From assembly GCA_041661275.1 (NCBI GenBank), contig JBAZUU010000004.1, forward strand, positions 71,480-135,479: a DNA stretch of 64,000 nucleotides. Direction: 5' to 3'. The notes under the pieces were generated by a model, which was not told the origin of the DNA, did no database searches, and saw nothing but the letters and a program-made list of their open reading frames with translations. Below are positions 4,120 through 11,575 of the stretch, piece by piece (positions within the stretch are counted from its first letter, which is position 1; the number at the start of each line of letters is the position of its first letter). The DNA is from Parcubacteria group bacterium. Lineage in GTDB: Bacteria; Patescibacteriota; Minisyncoccia; Moranbacterales; UBA2206. A program made the position numbers and the translations under genes.

Positions 4120-4305
4120 ATGAATAAAATCATCCATTTTTTGAAGGACGCCAAGACCGAACTGCAAAAGGTCAATTGGCCGACCAAAAAACAAACTATC
4201 AATTATACAGCGGCTGTCATTGCCATCAGTATTGCTATTGCCTTGTTTTTGGGCGCACTGGACTACATTTTCGAAGCTATTTTAAACAAATTTATATTAA
4301 AATAA
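4120..4305 (+). CDS. secE: Preprotein translocase subunit SecE
   Basis: 61-aa protein with a single C-terminal TM helix immediately upstream of nusG (canonical secE-nusG-rplK-rplA order). Confidence 0.75.
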   Translation: MNKIIHFLKDAKTELQKVNWPTKKQTINYTAAVIAISIAIALFLGALDYIFEAILNKFILK

Positions 4306-4306
4306 T

Positions 4307-4852
4307 ATGGCTAAACAATCCCAACATCACGGGCGAGCGTGGTATGTGCTCCATACATATTCCGGATATGAAGACAATGTGTCACGGAACCTGAAGCAAC
4401 GTATCGAATCGATGGATATGCAAGACCTCATCTTCGATGTAATGGTACCGACGGAAAAGAAAATAAAGATCAAGGCTGGGAAAAGAACAGTTGTTGAAGA
4501 AAAAATTTATCCCGGATATGTCCTGGTTGATATGATCGTCACTGACGCTTCTTGGTATGTAGTACGAAACACTCCAAATGTAACCGGATTTATCGGTCTT
4601 GGAACCACTCCGACGCCGGTTGATCCGCGGGAAATCGAGATGCTCAAAAAACGAATGGGTGTATCCGAACCGAAATATAAGATTGATGTGCAGACAGGTG
4701 ATGCAGTGAAGATCACTGACGGACCATTTAAGGATTTTGACGGAAAAGTTTCAGATGTGGATGAGGAAAAGGGAAGAGTGAAGGTGCTGGTTTCAATATT
4801 TGGAAGAGAGACACCAGTGGAATTAGACTTTTTGCAGATAAATAAAATATAA
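4307..4852 (+). CDS. nusG: Transcription termination/antitermination factor NusG
   Basis: WYVLHTYSGYEDNV NGN domain and C-terminal KOW motif (GDAVKITDGPFKDFDGKV). Confidence 0.9.
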   Translation: MAKQSQHHGRAWYVLHTYSGYEDNVSRNLKQRIESMDMQDLIFDVMVPTEKKIKIKAGKRTVVEEKIYPGYVLVDMIVTDASWYVVRNTPNVTGFIGLGTTPTPVDPREIEMLKKRMGVSEPKYKIDVQTGDAVKITDGPFKDFDGKVSDVDEEKGRVKVLVSIFGRETPVELDFLQINKI

Positions 4853-4964: not shown

Positions 4965-5387
4965 ATGGCTAAGAAAGTAAAAACTATAATAAAGTTACAA
5001 ATTCCAGCGGGAAAAGCTAATCCGGCGCCTCCAGTGGGACCAGCCTTGGGTCAGCATGGTTTGAATATCCAGGAATTTTGCACCAAATTCAATGAGCAGA
5101 CTCGGGACAAGGGATCTGACATTATTCCGGCTGAAATTACTGTTTTTGAAGACAGAACTTTCACTTTTATCCTGAAAACTCCTCCGGCATCTGATCTTCT
5201 GCGAAAAGCAGCGGGAGTAGAAAAGGGCGCGGGGAATCCTCTAAAAGACAAAGTGGGAAAAATTTCTAAAGATAAACTGCGAGAAATTGCGGAAAAGAAA
5301 TTACCAGACCTCAATGCTAATGATGTAGAAGGAGCGGAGAAGATCATCGCCGGGACAGCAAGAAGTATGGGGATAAAGATTGAGTAG
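4965..5387 (+). CDS. rplK: 50S ribosomal protein L11
   Basis: [39 protein letters not shown] matches the L11 N-terminal domain. Confidence 0.9.
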
Positions 5388-5552: not shown

Positions 5553-6245
5553 ATGAAACATGGTAAAAAGTATCGAGCGGCCTATGAAAAACTGGATCGC
5601 GAAAAAGTTTACAGTTTAGACGAAGCTGTGAAGTTTATGAAGGAAAACAAGATTGCTAAGTTTGATGAATCAGTGGAAGTGCACATCAGAACTAATGTTG
5701 ATACTAAAAAGGGTGACCAGCAAGTGCGCGGAACGGTCAATTTGCCACACGGAACAGGAAAAAACAAGAAGATCGCGGTGATCACCTCAACTGCTGCCAA
5801 AGAGGCGAAAGAAGCCGGAGCGGACATCGTGGGTGGTGAGGAAATGATCGAGAAGATAAAGAGCGGAAAAATGCTGGCAGGGAAAGAAACCTTTGATATT
5901 TTAGTGGCGACTCCCGAGATGATGCCAAAGCTGGCGCAGGTGGCCAAAATTTTGGGACCGAAAGGCCTGATGCCAAATCCAAAAACTGATACAGTAACGA
6001 CCAAGGTCAAGGAGACAGTGGCGGCGCTCAAAAAAGGAAAAGCGGCTTTCAAAAATGATGACTCGGGGAACATTCATCAGATCGTCGGCAAAGTTTCTTT
6101 TGATGATCAAAAATTAGTTGATAATATTAGAACTTTTGTCGAAGCGGTGGAAAAATCAAAACCATCAGGACTGAAAGGAAGACTTATCAGTAATATTACC
6201 GCCTGCTCAACAATGGGAGTGGGATTGAAAATCAGCGTGAAATAA
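5553..6245 (+). CDS. rplA: 50S ribosomal protein L1
   Basis: MKHGKKYRAAYEKLDREKVYSLDEAVKF...VHIRTNVDTKKGDQQVRGTVNLPHGTGK matches L1. The upstream repeat-rich leader could be the L1 autoregulatory site. Confidence 0.9.
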   Translation: MKHGKKYRAAYEKLDREKVYSLDEAVKFMKENKIAKFDESVEVHIRTNVDTKKGDQQVRGTVNLPHGTGKNKKIAVITSTAAKEAKEAGADIVGGEEMIEKIKSGKMLAGKETFDILVATPEMMPKLAQVAKILGPKGLMPNPKTDTVTTKVKETVAALKKGKAAFKNDDSGNIHQIVGKVSFDDQKLVDNIRTFVEAVEKSKPSGLKGRLISNITACSTMGVGLKISVK

Positions 6246-6334
6246 AACTAGATTTGATTTTTTAGCTGAAATATGCTATAATAGATAAAGCGGGTGAAAT
6301 ACCCGTTTTTATTTATTTTTATAAAAGCAATAAT

Positions 6335-6793
6335 ATGGCTATACGTATAGGAACAAATTTACCCAAAGGAACAGTGGCCGATGGCAAATCTTTAGGTTTT
6401 GATCCAAAGCGCAGTAAATTTATACAGGGACTTCTAAAAGATAAAGACGCAAGAGGAGCATTGGATAAACCTCAAGAAAGAAAACTGGTTTATGATGCTT
6501 TTAAAAGGCAGATGGGCAAAACTCCCAGAAATATAACCAACAGAGATGTGCGGGCTGTATTAGGAGCTTTTGGAACAGGAGAAATTGACCTGAAGGAAAG
6601 GCAGGCATTAGGAAAGGCGCTTCTTGGCAATGGATCATTTGTAAAGAAATATGATACTATTTCCAAAGAAAAGAAAGATTTTCTTTTAGGAAAAAGCAAC
6701 CCTGTAGTCGATCCTCGCAATGGAAGCTTGTCGACGACTAAACCCGGAAGTTCTTCAGGGAAAAGCGTCACTAGACATTCAGGTTTATTCTAA
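6335..6793 (+). CDS. Hypothetical protein (152 aa, basic, no recognised domain) occupying the position where rplJ is normally found
   Basis: Clean ORF preceded by a terminator and a TGCTATAAT -10 element. No similarity recognised by eye. Confidence 0.4.
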   Translation: MAIRIGTNLPKGTVADGKSLGFDPKRSKFIQGLLKDKDARGALDKPQERKLVYDAFKRQMGKTPRNITNRDVRAVLGAFGTGEIDLKERQALGKALLGNGSFVKKYDTISKEKKDFLLGKSNPVVDPRNGSLSTTKPGSSSGKSVTRHSGLF

Positions 6794-6886
6794 ATTGTAA
6801 AAGCAAAAAAGCGTTAAGAGCGCTTTTTCTATTGACTACCGGCAATACTTTTGATAGGATAATAAGGTGTTTAAAGGATAAATCAC

Positions 6887-7453
6887 ATGGACAAGAGAAA
6901 AATAGTAATAGGTCTCATAGGAGAGAAGGGTGCTGGAAAAGGCACTGTTTCTGATTATCTCATTGAAAAATATAAAGCCATCCACTACGGAACTTCAAAG
7001 ATACTTCGAAGGACGCTAGAGGACTTGCATCTGCCTGTCACGCGAGACAATTTAGTTAAGTTAGCCCTAGTTCTCAAAGAAGGCTATGGTCCATCGGTCA
7101 TCATTGATTCGCTTATCACAGATATGGAAAAGAATGGGTCGGATATCATCATCGCTGACGGAATCAGGATGCATGGCGATGTGGAACCGTTCAAGAAAAA
7201 ATATGGGCCGGATTTTTATCTGGTATATGTGACGGCTGACACGCGCTTGCGTTATGAGCGGACAAAAGCCAGAAAGCAAAACCACGGCGAAGAAAAGACT
7301 TCGTTCCAGGAATTTTTAGAAGAAGAAGCCAAGCTAACGGAAATCTCCATCCATGAAATAGGCAAGCAGGCTGACTTCAAACTTTCCAACAATGGCGCGC
7401 CGGAAGATCTCATCAAGCAAGTAGAGGAAATGCTTAAAGGCATATTGAAATAG
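6887..7453 (+). CDS. P-loop nucleoside/nucleotide kinase-like protein (CoaE/dNMP-kinase-like), paralog 1
   Basis: Walker A GLIGEKGAGKGT, DGIR motif, LID-like RLRYERTKAR, and a C-terminal SNNGAPEDL that matches the CoaE-type DNNGAPD ending. Confidence 0.6.
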   Translation: MDKRKIVIGLIGEKGAGKGTVSDYLIEKYKAIHYGTSKILRRTLEDLHLPVTRDNLVKLALVLKEGYGPSVIIDSLITDMEKNGSDIIIADGIRMHGDVEPFKKKYGPDFYLVYVTADTRLRYERTKARKQNHGEEKTSFQEFLEEEAKLTEISIHEIGKQADFKLSNNGAPEDLIKQVEEMLKGILK

Positions 7454-7459
7454 ACCTAC

Positions 7460-7491
7460 AATCCCGTCGCTCGCGAGCGACGGGATTTTTT
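7460..7491 (+). terminator. Rho-independent terminator
   Basis: aatcccgtcgctcgcgagcgacgggatttttt: 12-bp GC-rich stem plus T6. Confidence 0.65.
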
Positions 7492-7539
7492 GACCCCGAT
7501 TTTAATAAATAGTACAATAGAAAAACCTAATATAGCCAT

Positions 7540-8109
7540 ATGAAAATAGTCATTGGGACAGCGGGGGAGATAGCCAGTGGGAAAGAAACTGTGGCACGAT
7601 ATATCATCAAAAAATACGGCGGGTCTTTGTATAGATTTTCCGATTCTCTTCGCGAAATCCTGACCAGGATGCATCTGCCTGCCGACAGATCAAATTATCA
7701 CAAGATTTCCATGGCTTTGCGAGAGTATTTTGGTCAGGATGCACTTTCGCGGATTGTCTATAACGACATTAAAAAAAGCAAAAATAAAATAATTATTCTT
7801 GACGGGATTAGAAGGAAATCAGATACTGAATATTTGAAAGATATTAAAGGGTTTAAACTTATCTTCATTGACGCCAAGATAGAAACAAGACTAGTTAGAT
7901 TAAAAGCAAGAAAAGAAAAGCCCGATGATAAGAATAAGAGCATTGCTAAGTTTAAAAAAGAGCATGAGTCAGAAGTGGAAATAAAAATAAGAAAACTCAA
8001 GAAAATAGCTGATTTTGTGGTTGATAATAATGGTGAAAAAACGAAGCTTTTCCAGCAAATTGATCAAATCATTGATAGGATTTCCAAGAAAAAGAGTAAT
8101 TTGGTATAA
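7540..8109 (+). CDS. P-loop kinase-like protein, paralog 2 (degenerate Walker A GEIASGKET)
   Basis: Same architecture as 6887..7453 (MHLPADRSNY ~ LHLPVTRDNL; DGIRRK; RLVRLKARK; DNNGEKT). Tandem duplicate. Confidence 0.55.
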   Translation: MKIVIGTAGEIASGKETVARYIIKKYGGSLYRFSDSLREILTRMHLPADRSNYHKISMALREYFGQDALSRIVYNDIKKSKNKIIILDGIRRKSDTEYLKDIKGFKLIFIDAKIETRLVRLKARKEKPDDKNKSIAKFKKEHESEVEIKIRKLKKIADFVVDNNGEKTKLFQQIDQIIDRISKKKSNLV

Positions 8110-8183
8110 TTAGTTTACATTGCGCAACTGGGGATAATTTCAGTTACGCATTATTTTATCTCTAAACACTAACAACAACAAAA

Positions 8184-8705
8184 ATGGCAAAACCGTCCAA
8201 TGCAAAAAAAACCAGACTGAATTGGGATGAATTATTTATGAACATGGCTGTTCTGGCCGCTGAAAGAACCGCCTGTAAATTTGTGAGAGCGGGAGCAGTG
8301 TACGTTGATCACAATCATCGGGTAATTTCCTTGGGTTACAATGGGCCGACTGAAGGGGACTATCATTGCATCGATGTCGGATGCGCCAAAGTGGACGGAG
8401 ATCCGAAAACCAAAAAACTGAAACGATGTCGCGGAGCGCATGCTGAAATGAATGGCATCGCTAACGCGGTTGACACTACCCGACTCCGTGGCGCCACACT
8501 TTATTCTGCTACTTTTCCGTGTTATGACTGTATGAAAGCGCTTAATAACGCGGGAATAAAAGAAATTGTCTACTACACCGAATATAAAAGGATCCAGACC
8601 GGCGGAGAGAAAAAGGAAGAAGAGAATGAGGCTTGGGAGCTGGCCAAAAAACGAAAAATAAAAGTACGGAAATATAAAGGAGAGCTTAATCAAAAAATAA
8701 GTTAA
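8184..8705 (+). CDS. dCMP deaminase (ComEB/CDA family)
   Basis: HAEMNGIANA zinc-binding motif with PCYDC. dCMP deaminase length and motif spacing. Confidence 0.85.
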   Translation: MAKPSNAKKTRLNWDELFMNMAVLAAERTACKFVRAGAVYVDHNHRVISLGYNGPTEGDYHCIDVGCAKVDGDPKTKKLKRCRGAHAEMNGIANAVDTTRLRGATLYSATFPCYDCMKALNNAGIKEIVYYTEYKRIQTGGEKKEEENEAWELAKKRKIKVRKYKGELNQKIS

Positions 8706-8723
8706 AAAATCTTTTATAAAACT

Positions 8724-9722
8724 ATGGACAAAAAACATCCGGAATATCAATATTTAGACCTGATGCAAGACATTTTGGATAATGGATCGGATAAAAAACT
8801 GTTTTTCACTCCTGAAGTTCTGAAAGATTATGAAGAAAAAGGCCAAGAACCGCCGGTCATTCGAAGCGTCTTTGGGCGGCAGGCCAGATTTGATATGACC
8901 CAGGGCTTTCCCTTACTTACGACAAAAAAAGTTTTTTGGAAAGGAATTCTTCATGAGCTGCTCTGGTTTTTAAGTGGAAGTTCCAACATAAAATATTTAG
9001 TGGATAATAATGTCCATATTTGGGATGAGTGGGCTTATAAGAGATACAGAAAAAGCGCTATTGAAAAAAATGAGCCCTATATGACACAGGAGGAATTTAT
9101 TTCTAAGATAAAAAATGAACCAGCGGACAGCGAATTTGTGACCAATTGGGGCGACTTGATTGTTGTTTATGGAAAAATGTGGCGTCGTTGGCCAGCTAGC
9201 GATGGTCGAGAAATTGACCAATTAGGCTGGGTAATTCAAGGACTCAAGGACAAACCATTTCGAAAATCGTACGTAGTTTCTGGATGGAATCCTGATTTTA
9301 TCTACGCTATGGCCTCAAGGGGTAATGCCAATGAAGTCCCACCGTTTTGTCATACAACTTTTCAATTCGCAGTTACCGAAGGCAATAAGTTAAATCTTGG
9401 TCTATATCAAAGGAGCGCTGATTTATTTTTAGGTGTCCCGTTTAACATTGCCAGTTACGCTCTTCTTCTTCAAATGGTAGCCCAAGTAACTGGCCTTGAA
9501 GTAGGAGAATTTGTGCATACTTTCGGTGATGTGCATTTGTATTCCAATCACTATGATCAAGTAAGAGAGCAACTTTCCAGAGAACCGAAACCATTGCCGA
9601 CGATAAAAATTAAGCCTGATATAAAAAATATTGATGACTTTAAGTTTGAGGACTTTGAATTGATAAATTATGATCCGCATCCAGCCATCAAGGCGGAGTT
9701 GGCGAATATTGGAGGATTCTAA
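8724..9722 (+). CDS. thyA: Thymidylate synthase ThyA (with ~50-aa insertion as in Lactobacillus-type TS)
   Basis: Near-collinear with E. coli ThyA: [12 protein letters not shown], catalytic [41 protein letters not shown]. Confidence 0.9.
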
Positions 9723-9731
9723 TGATATTAT

Positions 9732-10232
9732 ATGAAAGTTATTTTGATGATGGCTATTACCATGGACGGGAAGATCGCGCGAGATAGCGATCATTTTCCT
9801 GATTGGACGAGTAGGGAAGACAAAAAACTTTTTGCGCGTGTTTCCAAGGAATATGGCGTGGTTATGATGGGAGAAAGGACTTTCAAAACTTTTCCGTCAC
9901 CACTTCCAAATCGCCTAAATGTAGTTTTTACACTGGAGAAAAATCCTCCGGAAACAGAGGGTGTGAAGTGGGTTTCTGGCGAGCCGGAAAAAGTTTTGAA
10001 AGAATTGGAACAAATGGGATATAAGTCAGCTATCCTTGGAGGGGGAGCCTATCTCAACACCTTGTTCTTGAAAAAAGGCCTGATTGACGAAATAATTGTG
10101 ACAGTTGAGCCAAAAATATTCGGCGCCGGACTTTCGCTTTTTTCGGAAGAAGTGGGTGTGAATCTGAAATTGATAGAAACGGAAAAGATAAATGAAGATT
10201 CTATCGTACTAAAATATAAAGTTATTAAATAA
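9732..10232 (+). CDS. Dihydrofolate reductase family protein (RibD C-terminal-domain type)
   Basis: MKVILMMAITMDGKIA... and GGGAYLNTLFLKKGLIDEIIVTVEPKIFG match the RibD_C/DHFR-like fold. Located immediately after thyA. Confidence 0.6.
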   Translation: MKVILMMAITMDGKIARDSDHFPDWTSREDKKLFARVSKEYGVVMMGERTFKTFPSPLPNRLNVVFTLEKNPPETEGVKWVSGEPEKVLKELEQMGYKSAILGGGAYLNTLFLKKGLIDEIIVTVEPKIFGAGLSLFSEEVGVNLKLIETEKINEDSIVLKYKVIK

Positions 10233-10238
10233 AAAAAT

Positions 10239-10811
10239 ATGATTTTAGGGATCAAAGAGCTTCACCGGTTGGTTTCCGAACAAAAATTGGTAGAAAATTT
10301 GTGCGAGCGGGAAATGAATAATCCGGAAGGAGCGGGGTTTGATTTGCGACTGGGAGAAGTGTATGAAATGGTAAGTGACCCTTCGACAGGCTCAGGGCAA
10401 GATGGGTTCCTGGGAGTAGAAGAAAGGCAGACGCCGGAAATTAAGCTTGTTGCTAAAGATGATCCGACAAAAGAAGAAGCAGAAAATTTTTTTGTGTTCG
10501 AACCGGGAAAATATTATCTCATAAAAACGATGGAGAAAGTGAATCTGCCAGTAACACTTTCCGGAATAATTTTTCCGCGGACAACTATGTTTCGCTCGGG
10601 GCTGGGACTGTTTAATGGTGTGGTGCAACCCGGTTATCAAGGCGAACTGACTTTTGGCGTTTGCAATCTTGGAAAGAGCAATATAAAAGTTTCTTTTGGC
10701 GCTCGCGTGGTGCATATCACATTCCACGAAGTTTTGGGAGAAGGCAACCAATACCGCGGACAGTGGCAAGGCGGAAGAGTGGCAACGGGAGGGAAAGAAG
10801 TGCAGGTTTAA
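10239..10811 (+). CDS. dcd: dCTP deaminase
   Basis: GAGFDLRLGEVYEM, the dUTPase-fold motif GIIFPRTTMFRSGL, and GYQGELTFGVCNLG. Confidence 0.85.
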   Translation: MILGIKELHRLVSEQKLVENLCEREMNNPEGAGFDLRLGEVYEMVSDPSTGSGQDGFLGVEERQTPEIKLVAKDDPTKEEAENFFVFEPGKYYLIKTMEKVNLPVTLSGIIFPRTTMFRSGLGLFNGVVQPGYQGELTFGVCNLGKSNIKVSFGARVVHITFHEVLGEGNQYRGQWQGGRVATGGKEVQV

Positions 10812-10831: not shown

Positions 10832-10859
10832 AAGACCCGCCGATGACGGGTCTTTTTTA
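10832..10859. terminator. Bidirectional intrinsic terminator between dcd (+) and the BtpA-like gene (-)
   Basis: agacccgccgatgacgggtct followed by tttttt. An A-run lies on the other side. Confidence 0.6.
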
Positions 10860-10876: not shown

Positions 10877-11575
10877 TTATTTGACAGCGTTGATCAGTTC
10901 TTCCGTAAGAGACGGGTCGAGATTGTAAAAATTCCGGCTAATACTTGTAGCAACCAAAAAGAACTGGCATTCAGGGTAAAGTTTTACATTTTCAACGCTG
11001 ATGCCGCTAGCTATCGCCAATGGAACATTGCCAGCGACTTTCTTCATGCGGCTGATCTTTTCAGGATCGGGCGGGCTTCCTGTTTTCCTCCCACTTGTGG
11101 TTATAACGTCCATGTAGCGTATTGCTAGTTCAGTCGCTCTTTCAACGTTATCGACAAGTGATTGATACTTGAAAGCTACTCCGCCAAAATACATTCCCTT
11201 CCAGCCACTTTTTTTTCTAGCCATTGCTATGAGCTCGGGCTCATTTTGATGTTCAGTTTGTTCGTTGATCATGGCGTTGTCAGTCCAAATGGCGGAGGCG
11301 CTTTCTGGAATAACCTCGAAAACCTCTCTTGGAGCAAGGTCTAAAAAATTCAGACCGATCCACCAGTCAGGAAAAATATTTCGAACGGCCTGATAAATGT
11401 AAAGCAGATCGTTACACAAGATATTGTGGTTGATTAAAAAAATCCCGTCGCAACCAGCTCTCTTAGCGATGGTTGCATTGGCCAAGGCTTGATTAACATT
11501 GCTTACATGAATTACGGGCAATACAACATGCTTTTTGTCGGGAAAATCATTTTTTGGCATCGCTATTACCTCCAT
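10877..11575 (-). CDS. BtpA/SgcQ-family TIM-barrel protein
   Basis: VLPVIHVSNV..., TSGRKTGSPPDPEKI and AIASGISVENVK...FLVATSI are consistent with PF03437 (BtpA). Confidence 0.5.
   Translation of the reverse strand: MEVIAMPKNDFPDKKHVVLPVIHVSNVNQALANATIAKRAGCDGIFLINHNILCNDLLYIYQAVRNIFPDWWIGLNFLDLAPREVFEVIPESASAIWTDNAMINEQTEHQNEPELIAMARKKSGWKGMYFGGVAFKYQSLVDNVERATELAIRYMDVITTSGRKTGSPPDPEKISRMKKVAGNVPLAIASGISVENVKLYPECQFFLVATSISRNFYNLDPSLTEELINAVK

Follow-up and report, generated by a model that had tools for sequence, protein, structure and literature searches.

The 64,000-nucleotide stretch analysed here (the window) comes from the metagenome-assembled genome of a Parcubacteria group bacterium (assembly GCA_041661275.1, contig JBAZUU010000004.1, positions 71,480 to 135,479 of the forward strand) and carries, downstream of rplK-rplA, seven genes encoding a 152-aa hypothetical protein (hyp152), two P-loop kinases, a deoxycytidine monophosphate (dCMP) deaminase, the thymidylate synthase (TS) ThyA, a dihydrofolate reductase (DHFR) and a protein of the dCTP deaminase (DCD)/dUTPase fold, hereafter the DCD-like protein. 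We consider it probable, at roughly two chances in three, that the region is a Patescibacteria (Parcubacteria-group) supply cluster for deoxythymidine monophosphate (dTMP), located at the lineage-typical position between rplK-rplA and gatB and equipped with a ThyA that departs from the textbook enzyme and with a DCD-like companion. Taken as a whole, the cluster belongs to the ordinary housekeeping genes of the lineage. Judged from their sequences, three of its components are non-standard, namely an arginine-poor, tail-extended ThyA, a catalytically altered DCD-like protein and the kinase pair.

Predicted route to dTMP

Gene identities, residue states, synteny and gene co-occurrence were read directly from the sequences, and the window proteins were run against four profile libraries (Pfam, NCBIfam, PHROG and PADLOC). 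A preliminary description of the window had placed seven open reading frames (ORFs), including the 152-aa hypothetical, on one strand; all seven were recovered at exactly the same coordinates, all on the + strand. Its proposal of a compact module leading from deoxyuridine monophosphate (dUMP) to dTMP was likewise borne out, with the deaminase, ThyA and DHFR all scoring above curated cutoffs. The deaminase carries the H-A-E and P-C-x-x-C motifs, reaches 81 bits with PF00383 (dCMP_cyt_deam_1, cutoff 25) and finds its best matches among housekeeping and phage dCMP deaminases (phrog_174, 138 bits; ComEB, 96 bits; PDB entry 2HVV, 70 bits; also 2W4L). ThyA exceeds the cutoffs of TIGR03284 (362 bits, cutoff 108), NF002496 (355.8 bits, cutoff 325) and PF00303 (325 bits). 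It aligns over its full length with ThyA enzymes (EC 2.1.1.45) such as those of L. casei and E. coli, with 49-50% identity to the best PDB chains, and has an L. casei-type small-domain insert, the catalytic and folate residues and an adjacent folA gene. The product of that gene scores 44.1 bits with PF00186/DHFR_1 (cutoff 25) and 79 bits with RibD_C (PF01872), and aligns from residue 2 to residue 165 with Thermotoga maritima DHFR (1CZ3/1D1G; 108.7 bits, E 2.5e-30), a full-length match to a protein of equal length from which it shows no difference of note. In many relatives the DHFR slot is taken by another, ordinary type of FolA that is 27-34% identical to the window DHFR. The folA genes of candidate phyla radiation (CPR) bacteria complement E. 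coli ΔfolA (PMC11974145).

The enzymatic activities of all seven proteins we infer from sequence. The dCMP deaminase would convert dCMP to dUMP, ThyA would convert dUMP and 5,10-methylene-tetrahydrofolate to dTMP and dihydrofolate, and the adjacent Thermotoga-type DHFR would regenerate tetrahydrofolate (THF). The most likely role of the two kinases is to phosphorylate nucleoside or deoxynucleoside monophosphates that supply the pathway or draw on it. The DCD-like protein would bind a pyrimidine deoxynucleoside triphosphate (dNTP), and would either hydrolyse it by a non-canonical route or serve the variant ThyA and the deaminase as partner or regulator.

The type of reaction catalysed by ThyA was assessed from its active-site residues. 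In E. coli numbering, the window ThyA keeps Cys146 (in P-x-C-H), Glu58, Trp80/83, Tyr94, Arg166, Asp169, Asn177, His207 and Tyr209. A census in the same numbering covered 39 distinct sequences of the window type (subtype 1), 8 of a second variant type (subtype 2, 53-57% identical to the window ThyA) and 14 canonical Patescibacteria sequences, and C146, E58, W80, Y94, R166, D169, N177, H207 and Y209 are kept in all three sets; Cys146, Glu58, Tyr94, Trp80, Asp169, His207 and Tyr209 are present in 39/39 subtype-1 sequences. The dUMP-specifying Asn177 (Asn241 in the window ThyA) is Asn in all 47 variant sequences. In other genomes the variant ThyA has as neighbours a DHFR (most loci), serine hydroxymethyltransferase (SHMT; locus L083) and thymidylate kinase (Tmk) or a Tmk-dUTPase, and deaminase orthologues of the window type (53-79% identity) accompany it in metagenome loci. 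Hydroxymethylases release THF, not dihydrofolate. Since a DHFR is needed only if the TS yields dihydrofolate, the function of ThyA is most likely the ordinary reductive methylation of dUMP to dTMP.

A phage-type pathway to modified pyrimidines, in which the TS homologue would be a dUMP or dCMP hydroxymethylase and the kinases would act on the modified nucleotide, had been raised in the preliminary description. Some grounds for it exist: a deaminase and a TS homologue stand together with proteins resembling deoxynucleoside monophosphate (dNMP) kinases (phrog_139 'deoxynucleoside monophosphate kinase', 45-69 bits), the ThyA lid (C-terminus and R21 loop), which shields hydride transfer in canonical TS, is remodelled, and relatives hold a TS homologue of the dCMP type, with Asp at the Asn177 position, in the same slot. 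T4 dCMP hydroxymethylase has Asp at that position. The Asp of this gp42 type was not found in the window ThyA, where, as in every other variant sequence, the residue is Asn and the catalytic residues are kept. Furthermore, DHFR is co-operonic, SHMT and Tmk adjoin the same ThyA variant elsewhere, the cutoffs of the TS equivalog hidden Markov models (HMMs) are passed, the best phage matches reach only 47-50% (ThyA), 30% (DCD-like protein) and 27% identity (kinase), and the cluster lies at a conserved core-genome position. This alternative is thus extremely unlikely, and methylation of dUMP is retained as the predicted reaction.

Variant ThyA with an altered phosphate site

The window ThyA was aligned with PDB TS chains (HMMER), in a 26-sequence MAFFT alignment and in an alignment of 19 clade members with 76-85% identity to it. 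For the reference sequences (ThyA of E. coli and L. casei, Dcd and Dut of E. coli), the key columns were verified in the HMMER alignments with the PDB chains. In all three alignments the window protein differs from the E. coli and L. casei enzymes by a 14-aa insert in the R21 loop. In addition, "FRKS" replaces the "DSRR" of canonical enzymes, with loss of R126' and R127', and a 4-aa C-terminal extension (...ANIGGF) continues past the usual terminal ...A-[IV]. In ThyA the chain ends at this ...A-[IV], and its free carboxylate closes the active site. In the structural model from AlphaFold2 (AF2) the insert forms an ordered strand plus helix, with a predicted local distance difference test (pLDDT) score of 82-88, and the tail is flexible (pLDDT <50).

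The census and the PDB-chain alignments agree that R166 alone remains of the four phosphate-binding arginines and that R21, R126' and R127' are replaced. In subtype 1, R21 is E, Q, V or L, R126 is K and R127 is S, with a tail of +4 aa. In subtype 2, R21 is G, R126 is H, R127 is N or S and W83 is changed to Y, with a tail of +17-22 aa containing GG[IV]. Conversely, the 14 canonical Patescibacteria sequences have R at all three positions and no tail. The R21 loop has normal length in subtype 2, and the arginine loss there is therefore not an alignment artefact. All 19 clade members have the insert and the ...ANIGG[FY] end unchanged. The clade is large: all 120 matches listed (90%-identity clusters) share 75% identity or more with the window ThyA, and every one that has a source name is from Patescibacteria. 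The preliminary description had called for inspection of the residues that discriminate methylases from hydroxymethylases, and had taken a ThyA with all canonical methylase residues, together with kinases confidently classed as CoaE or another unrelated kinase, as the mark of a plain housekeeping cluster. Asn177 and the catalytic residues are indeed of the methylase type, but the set is not canonical throughout, because the protein lacks three of the four phosphate arginines and runs on past the usual C-terminus.

The roles of the four arginines (R21, R126', R127' and R166) have been described for TS, and a Vibrio TS with R127'→Gly was reported in 2018 as the first natural TS without one of them, with a raised Km for dUMP (PMC6005164). 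This enzyme is the only natural precedent found; it has lost one arginine, the Patescibacteria clade three.

The DCD-like protein and its association with ThyA

The last gene of the cluster had been taken for dcd, encoding a dCTP deaminase, an identification that does not stand. The protein scores 80.8 bits with PF22769 and only 74.0 bits with TIGR02274 (cutoff 92.8), and also falls below the PRK02253 cutoff. Its residues were compared by alignment with those of 4XJC (B. halodurans DCD:DUT), 1XS4 (E. coli Dcd), 1DUC (a dUTPase of retroviral origin) and 9LN0/8Y1W (chains of 155-156 aa). Gly140 takes the position of the catalytic Glu138, aligning with the Glu of 4XJC ('itlElfn') and with the mutated position of 1XS4, and Gln130 takes that of Asp128, which in dUTPases is the Asp of motif III, as the alignments with 1DUC, 9LN0 and 4XJC show. 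Both Q130 and G140 are invariant in a family alignment of 18 members (77-94% identity to the window protein), and in members further removed the Asp128 position is taken by Pro or Ala. With Glu138 replaced by Gly, the deaminase base is therefore absent. Likewise, the protein does not qualify as a trimeric dUTPase, for which TIGR00576 gave 30.8 bits against a cutoff of 102.55 and neither motif V (G-F-G-S-T-G) nor the motif III Asp was found. What it shares with Dcd, DCD-DUT and archaeal Dcd-like dUTPases (PF22769; 1XS1, 4XJC, 9LN0/8Y1W) is the fold family, a length of about 182-190 aa and the motifs R-[ST]-[ST]-x-x-R, PG[YW]xG and a C-terminal Y-x-G-x-[YW]-Q-G lid. Within the family, conservation of the R-T-T-x-x-R motif and of the lid, here Y-R-G-Q-W-Q-G-G-R, suggests that dNTP binding is retained.

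The distribution of the two variant proteins was followed in two samples. In the kinase-anchored sample one genome per species was scanned with the kinase alignment, which gave 80 loci labelled mostly as Patescibacteria (Moraniibacteriota, Falkowbacteria, Lloydbacteria and others), the other labels being generic or, for example, "uncultured Bdellovibrionales" and, in two cases, "Aenigmatarchaeota". The DCD-like-anchored sample is independent and consists of 80 metagenome loci. In the former, all four distinct loci with an ANIGGF-type ThyA (the window contig, L083, L087 and L088) carry the window-type DCD-like gene, and a DCD-like gene of any kind was found in none of the 14 loci with a canonical ThyA. 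In the latter, 56 TS ORFs are of the variant and 0 of the canonical type. In the loci sampled, the window-type DCD-like protein thus occurs only beside the variant ThyA, the usual order in the DCD-like-anchored sample being dCMP deaminase, DCD-like gene, ThyA variant, (DHFR), kinase, Tmk(-Dut), gatB. In related genomes the pair is swapped, at the same chromosomal slot, for a canonical ThyA or for the Asp-type TS homologue with a DCD-like partner of its own.

The pair is also unusually similar between genomes, with 72-80% (ThyA) and 77-90% identity (DCD-like protein) to the window where ribosomal protein L1 and gatB reach only 47-57%. At five loci (L114, L126, L144, L150 and L134) the corresponding values are 66-70% for the deaminase, 79-82% for the DCD-like protein and 77-78% for the variant ThyA, compared with 47-57% for L1 and 53-56% for gatB. 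This similarity reflects either unusually strong constraint or exchange of the cassette among Patescibacteria. Small NUDIX hydrolase genes lie beside the variant ThyA or the deaminase at three loci (Table 1). Their products may be an alternative dNTP pyrophosphatase supplying the monophosphate; one of these loci, L047, has the NUDIX gene and no DCD-like gene.

Several observations weigh against the reading of the region as a dTMP supply cluster with a companion DCD-like protein. Loss of three phosphate-binding arginines is expected, by analogy with characterized TS, to weaken dUMP binding severely, and therefore either other residues compensate or the true substrate differs. Candidates for compensation are the invariant R180/K181, residues of the insert and the Gly-rich tail; in subtype 1, moreover, the R21 column adjoins the 14-aa insert, so that a structurally equivalent basic residue may be present. 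With regard to the co-occurrence, the variant ThyA of L085 adjoins a different, Glu-containing Dcd type, the subtype-2 variant ThyA of L047 occurs without a DCD-like gene, and the association could reflect shared inheritance or cassette transfer rather than functional coupling; co-inheritance of the cassette remains a sufficient explanation of the link. Finally, canonical Tmk, Dut, Adk and SHMT were not found in the window, and the steps after dTMP are therefore not accounted for locally. The underlying tblastn searches, with CPR Tmk, Tmk-Dut, Dut, Adk and SHMT references, gave no match in the 64 kb of the window, as distinct from the whole genome, and among its proteins only the two kinases matched in motif scans for Tmk, Adk, Cmk, Gmk and Ndk signatures.

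The altered residues of both proteins also allow for a TS system of Patescibacteria that is as yet undescribed, in which the variant ThyA would work with a re-tooled DCD-like protein, whether as a complex, by passing substrate from one to the other or by using a nucleotide that is not free dUMP. We regard this as unlikely. In its strict form, which appears quite unlikely, the two proteins would be an obligate two-component system, either a complex with nucleotide hand-over or a TS acting on a substrate other than free dUMP (e.g. dUDP/dUTP-level or protein-bound), with the partner or the tail replacing the arginines. The exclusive association with variant TS ORFs in the DCD-like-anchored sample, together with the absence of the DCD-like gene from canonical loci, speaks for such an arrangement, as do the 72-82% identity of both proteins where L1 and gatB show only 47-57%, the frequent spacing of the two genes by 16-19 nt, and the concerted changes in the phosphate site and C-terminal lid of ThyA and in the catalytic residues of the DCD-like protein. 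Still, most loci with the pair also have a Tmk or Tmk-dUTPase, an argument for free dTMP as the product, the exceptional loci L047 and L085 do not fit an obligate partnership, and simple inheritance of the cassette may explain the co-occurrence. Ordinary synthesis of dTMP by the variant ThyA, with the DCD-like protein as companion, is accordingly the reading carried forward.

The kinase pair and hyp152

The two kinases and hyp152 are the other, upstream half of the cluster. As the preliminary description had it, the kinases are paralogues (37% identity over 184 aa, E 2e-31) and are not canonical CoaE or Tmk. Both match Pfam AAA_17 and AAA_18 above the gathering score. The CoaE models TIGR00152 (23.5-23.9 bits, cutoff 65.55; P-loop only, residues 3-32) and PF01121 (21.2 bits, cutoff 27) remain below their cutoffs, as do the T4 dNMP kinase model PF21448 (18-22 bits, cutoff 27) and PRK08356 NF006226 (73-76 bits, 75.7 for kinase 1; cutoff 189), and neither kinase has a match to the Tmk family PF02223 in Pfam, the P-loop expected of a Tmk being G-x-D-G-x-G-K-[ST]. 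Kinase 1 also matches the kinase part of NF041025, PADLOC dCTPase, phrog_10255 and phrog_139. The motifs ascribed to the chain ends were correct for kinase 2 (DNNGEKT) but not for kinase 1, which ends ...SNNGAPED and not DNNGAPD.

The nearest solved protein is the AMP-bound Sulfolobus SSO1041 (UPF0200, PDB 3LW7; E 1e-10 to 1e-13, 7e-13 for kinase 1). Similarly, 3LW7 is the best Foldseek match to the AF2 model of kinase 2 (pLDDT 91.7), with template modelling (TM) scores of 0.75/0.83, followed by adenylate, UMP/CMP and dephospho-CoA kinases at TM about 0.6. The invariant residues of the family are the Gly and Lys of the P-loop, the Arg of the DGxR motif and three lid arginines, a set that fits the mechanism of nucleoside monophosphate (NMP) kinases. 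On this basis the kinases are assigned by sequence to a UPF0200/SSO1041-like NMP-kinase family that is neither CoaE nor Tmk. With SSO1041 (3LW7, 3H0K) and PRK08356 they share size, P-loop, DGxR motif and arginine-rich lid; they differ from UPF0200/SSO1041 in an identity of only about 20% and in forming a tandem pair beside a dCMP deaminase, the archaeal proteins being themselves uncharacterised. A literature search on UPF0200/SSO1041 found nothing, and searches on AvcD and CPR thymidylate metabolism gave general context only. The likeness to phage T4 dNMP kinase (PF21448; 1DEK) and phrog_139 consists in the GK-[DEG]-T P-loop and the 45-69 bits with phrog_139, whereas the scores lie below the Pfam cutoff, only the N-terminal part aligns and no close phage homologue exists (<=28% identity). 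The family comprises 646 representative clusters at E<=1e-30 and 4,672 at E<=1e-10, and nearly all of the 150 members listed are single-domain proteins of about 185 aa. Orthologues of kinase 1 with 74-84% identity lie directly 3' of rplA at eight loci (L005, L021, L027, L031, L034, L057, L058 and L090).

That the kinases are dephospho-CoA kinases, or simple replacements of Tmk, is suggested by the JGI name 'dephospho-CoA kinase' for their homologues, by the CoaE structures among the Foldseek matches (TM about 0.6) and by the lack of a Tmk in the window. We consider it very unlikely: the CoaE models align to the P-loop only, with 21-24 bits over residues 3-32, SSO1041/UPF0200 is the nearest neighbour in both sequence and structure, and a canonical Tmk or Tmk-Dut coexists with the kinases in most relatives, so that they are not simply Tmk replacements.

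A second alternative starts from the match of the kinases (33-46 bits) and the deaminase (69 bits) to the two halves of NF041025 and PADLOC PDLC02373, the models of the anti-phage dCTP deaminase (AvcD-type), whose kinase-like and deaminase domains are homologous to kinases 1 and 2 and to the deaminase. Kinase 2 and the deaminase, which stand in the same order as the domains of the fused protein, would then be a split version of this protein serving defence and not metabolism. These scores are far below the cutoff of 400 bits, the deaminase is better matched by housekeeping proteins (phrog_174, 138; ComEB, 96; 2HVV, 70 bits), and kinase-deaminase fusions numbered 0 in 168 loci. Unlike the AvcD-type protein, moreover, the components are here separate core-genome genes, conserved beside ribosomal genes in many Patescibacteria and co-operonic with thyA-folA. 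A defence function is thus most improbable, and the match to the AvcD model is best read as an evolutionary relationship and not as membership. For the kinases, the predicted role in NMP phosphorylation is retained.

No match to hyp152 was found in Pfam, NCBIfam, PHROG or PADLOC. A homologue with 39% identity occurs in L057, and in a 390-aa protein (P0377) a kinase-1 orthologue (56% identity) is preceded by an N-terminal stretch resembling hyp152 (35% over 85 aa, E 7e-10), although this fusion may be a gene-calling artefact. In addition, three proteins of 379-395 aa (P0322, P0369 and P0409) are tandem fusions of two kinases. The fusions link the kinases to each other and hyp152 to kinase 1, which suggests that the tandem kinases and hyp152 work together.

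Genomic position and cluster layout

The continuation rplJ-rplL-rpoB expected after rplA is absent, as the preliminary description had stated, and a motif scan found no L7/L12 motif in the 64 kb window. Its conclusion that the module had been inserted is contradicted by the related loci. The order secE-nusG-rplK-rplA, kinase(s), dCMP deaminase, kinase, then optional thyA, folA and DCD-like gene is recurrent, with rplA directly upstream of the module in about 38 related Patescibacteria loci and, after the module, usually Tmk or a Tmk-dUTPase fusion and then gatB. With the same rplA-module-gatB arrangement in about 38 loci, the gap is therefore a typical trait of the lineage, and the module is not an insertion but a conserved feature of the core genome. 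In the window the next large genes downstream are gatB, miaA, miaB, thrS and dnaE, and the remainder is housekeeping, including several aminoacyl-tRNA synthetases. A phage origin of the cluster was considered and rejected on the phage identities given above (at most 28% for the kinase).

The tight spacing claimed for the whole cluster was found for its last four genes, with gaps of 18, 9 and 6 nt (ORF list), but not for the first four, which are spaced by 74-93 nt with promoter-like sites inside the gaps. Because of the gaps of 6-18 nt and the terminal terminator, the dCMP deaminase, thyA, DHFR and DCD-like genes probably form one operon. Promoter and terminator calls are consensus matches only, from scan and sequence (Table 1). 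Of the terminator and promoter said to follow rplA in that order, both were seen, but the promoter-like site precedes the hairpin, ending 5 nt 5' of it. Transcripts from this site would begin within the 5' arm of the hairpin and could, speculatively, escape termination. The hairpin at the other end closes both the cluster and a convergent BtpA-like ORF, which sits in the slot that a + strand Tmk or Tmk-Dut occupies in most relatives.

Table 1. Positions of the cluster, its flanking elements and the related-locus genes discussed in the text
Feature	Sequence	Position	Strand	Basis
secE	window	4120-4305	+	Pfam SecE on identical contigs
nusG	window	4307-4852	+	Pfam NusG/KOW on identical contigs
rplK	window	4965-5387	+	Pfam Ribosomal_L11 on identical contigs
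rplA	window	5553-6245	+	Pfam Ribosomal_L1 on identical contigs
Promoter-like TTGATT-17-TGcTATAAT, extended -10	window	6254-6282	+	consensus scan
Terminator-like hairpin AAAGCGGGT-GAAAT-ACCCGTTTT plus T-run	window	6287-6309	+	sequence and consensus scan
hyp152, 152 aa, without family match	window	6335-6793	+	ORF; four profile libraries
Kinase 1, UPF0200/SSO1041-like P-loop NMP-kinase fold (predicted), P-loop GEKGAGKGT	window	6887-7453	+	AAA_17/AAA_18 above cutoff
Kinase 2, paralogue of kinase 1, P-loop GEIASGKET	window	7540-8109	+	AAA_17/AAA_18 above cutoff
dCMP deaminase (predicted), zinc motifs HAEMNGI, PCYDC	window	8184-8705	+	PF00383 81 bits
ThyA, Patescibacteria variant clade	window	8724-9722	+	TIGR03284 362 bits
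DHFR (predicted), Thermotoga maritima type	window	9732-10232	+	PF00186, PF01872 above cutoff
DCD/dUTPase-fold protein (DCD-like)	window	10239-10811	+	PF22769 80.8 bits
Bidirectional terminator-like hairpin AAGACCCG(C/T)C...GACGGGTCTT, T-runs on both strands	window	10832-10854	both	consensus scan and sequence
Convergent BtpA-like ORF, 232 aa	window	10877-11575	-	PF03437 31 bits, cutoff 30 (marginal)
NUDIX hydrolase gene	L083	9004-9414		
NUDIX hydrolase gene	L088	5870-6292		
NUDIX hydrolase gene	L047	5326-5775		
Asp-type TS	L030	710-1540		
Asp-type TS	L044	771-1610		
Asp-type TS	L058	8553-9383		
Asp-type TS	L062	5204-6034		
Asp-type TS	L065	5486-6316		
Asp-type TS	L070	5616-6446		
Asp-type TS	L082	8533-9381		
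TS-like protein, 362 aa	L016	1517-2605		
Tmk-dUTPase fusion	L087	4411-5592		
Tmk-dUTPase fusion	L041	8174-9466		
Tmk-dUTPase fusion	L037	8727-9950		
Tmk-dUTPase fusion	L049	8745-9968		
Tmk-dUTPase fusion	L070	8530-9723		
Tmk-dUTPase fusion	L093	4800-5762		
Tmk-dUTPase fusion	L134	6744-7994		

Other thymidylate synthase and kinase forms in related loci

Seven relatives carry, in the thyA slot, a TS-family protein of 276-282 aa in which Asn177 is changed to Asp ('RSNDMMLGCPHDMAGF') and His147 to Pro. A DHFR gene is adjacent in 5/7 of these loci and a distinct DCD-like protein of 216-233 aa, with Glu138 replaced by Pro, in 7/7; no clear dCMP deaminase was seen nearby, L070 having only a 28% match. 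Judged by these residues and neighbours, such loci could represent a dCMP-specific methylase or hydroxymethylase pathway in CPR bacteria. L016 encodes a 362-aa TS-like protein that is only 28% identical to the window ThyA and atypical in its active-site region (APCHGNF..., QRSADVPVGLQLNLIEW). It is neither of the canonical nor of the variant nor of the Asp type and adjoins a kinase-2 homologue and SHMT. Single-ORF fusions of an N-terminal canonical thymidylate kinase with a C-terminal trimeric dUTPase (GFGSTG motif) were observed at seven loci, usually between the kinase/ThyA genes and gatB.

Implications

To our knowledge, few enzymes are as conserved or as thoroughly studied as ThyA, whose four arginines for phosphate binding are regarded as invariant. 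A large, conserved clade without three of them would, if true, mean either that there is more than one way to build the dUMP site or that another substrate is used. Annotation at scale is at present wrong or missing for these proteins: members of the DCD-like family are named "hypothetical protein" at NCBI and "dCTP deaminase" at JGI, and the kinases, whose family runs to thousands of clusters, appear as "dephospho-CoA kinase" or "AAA ATPase". CPR bacteria have lost most biosynthesis, yet this cluster is kept beside the ribosomal protein genes, and it thereby marks what minimal, host-dependent cells must still do.

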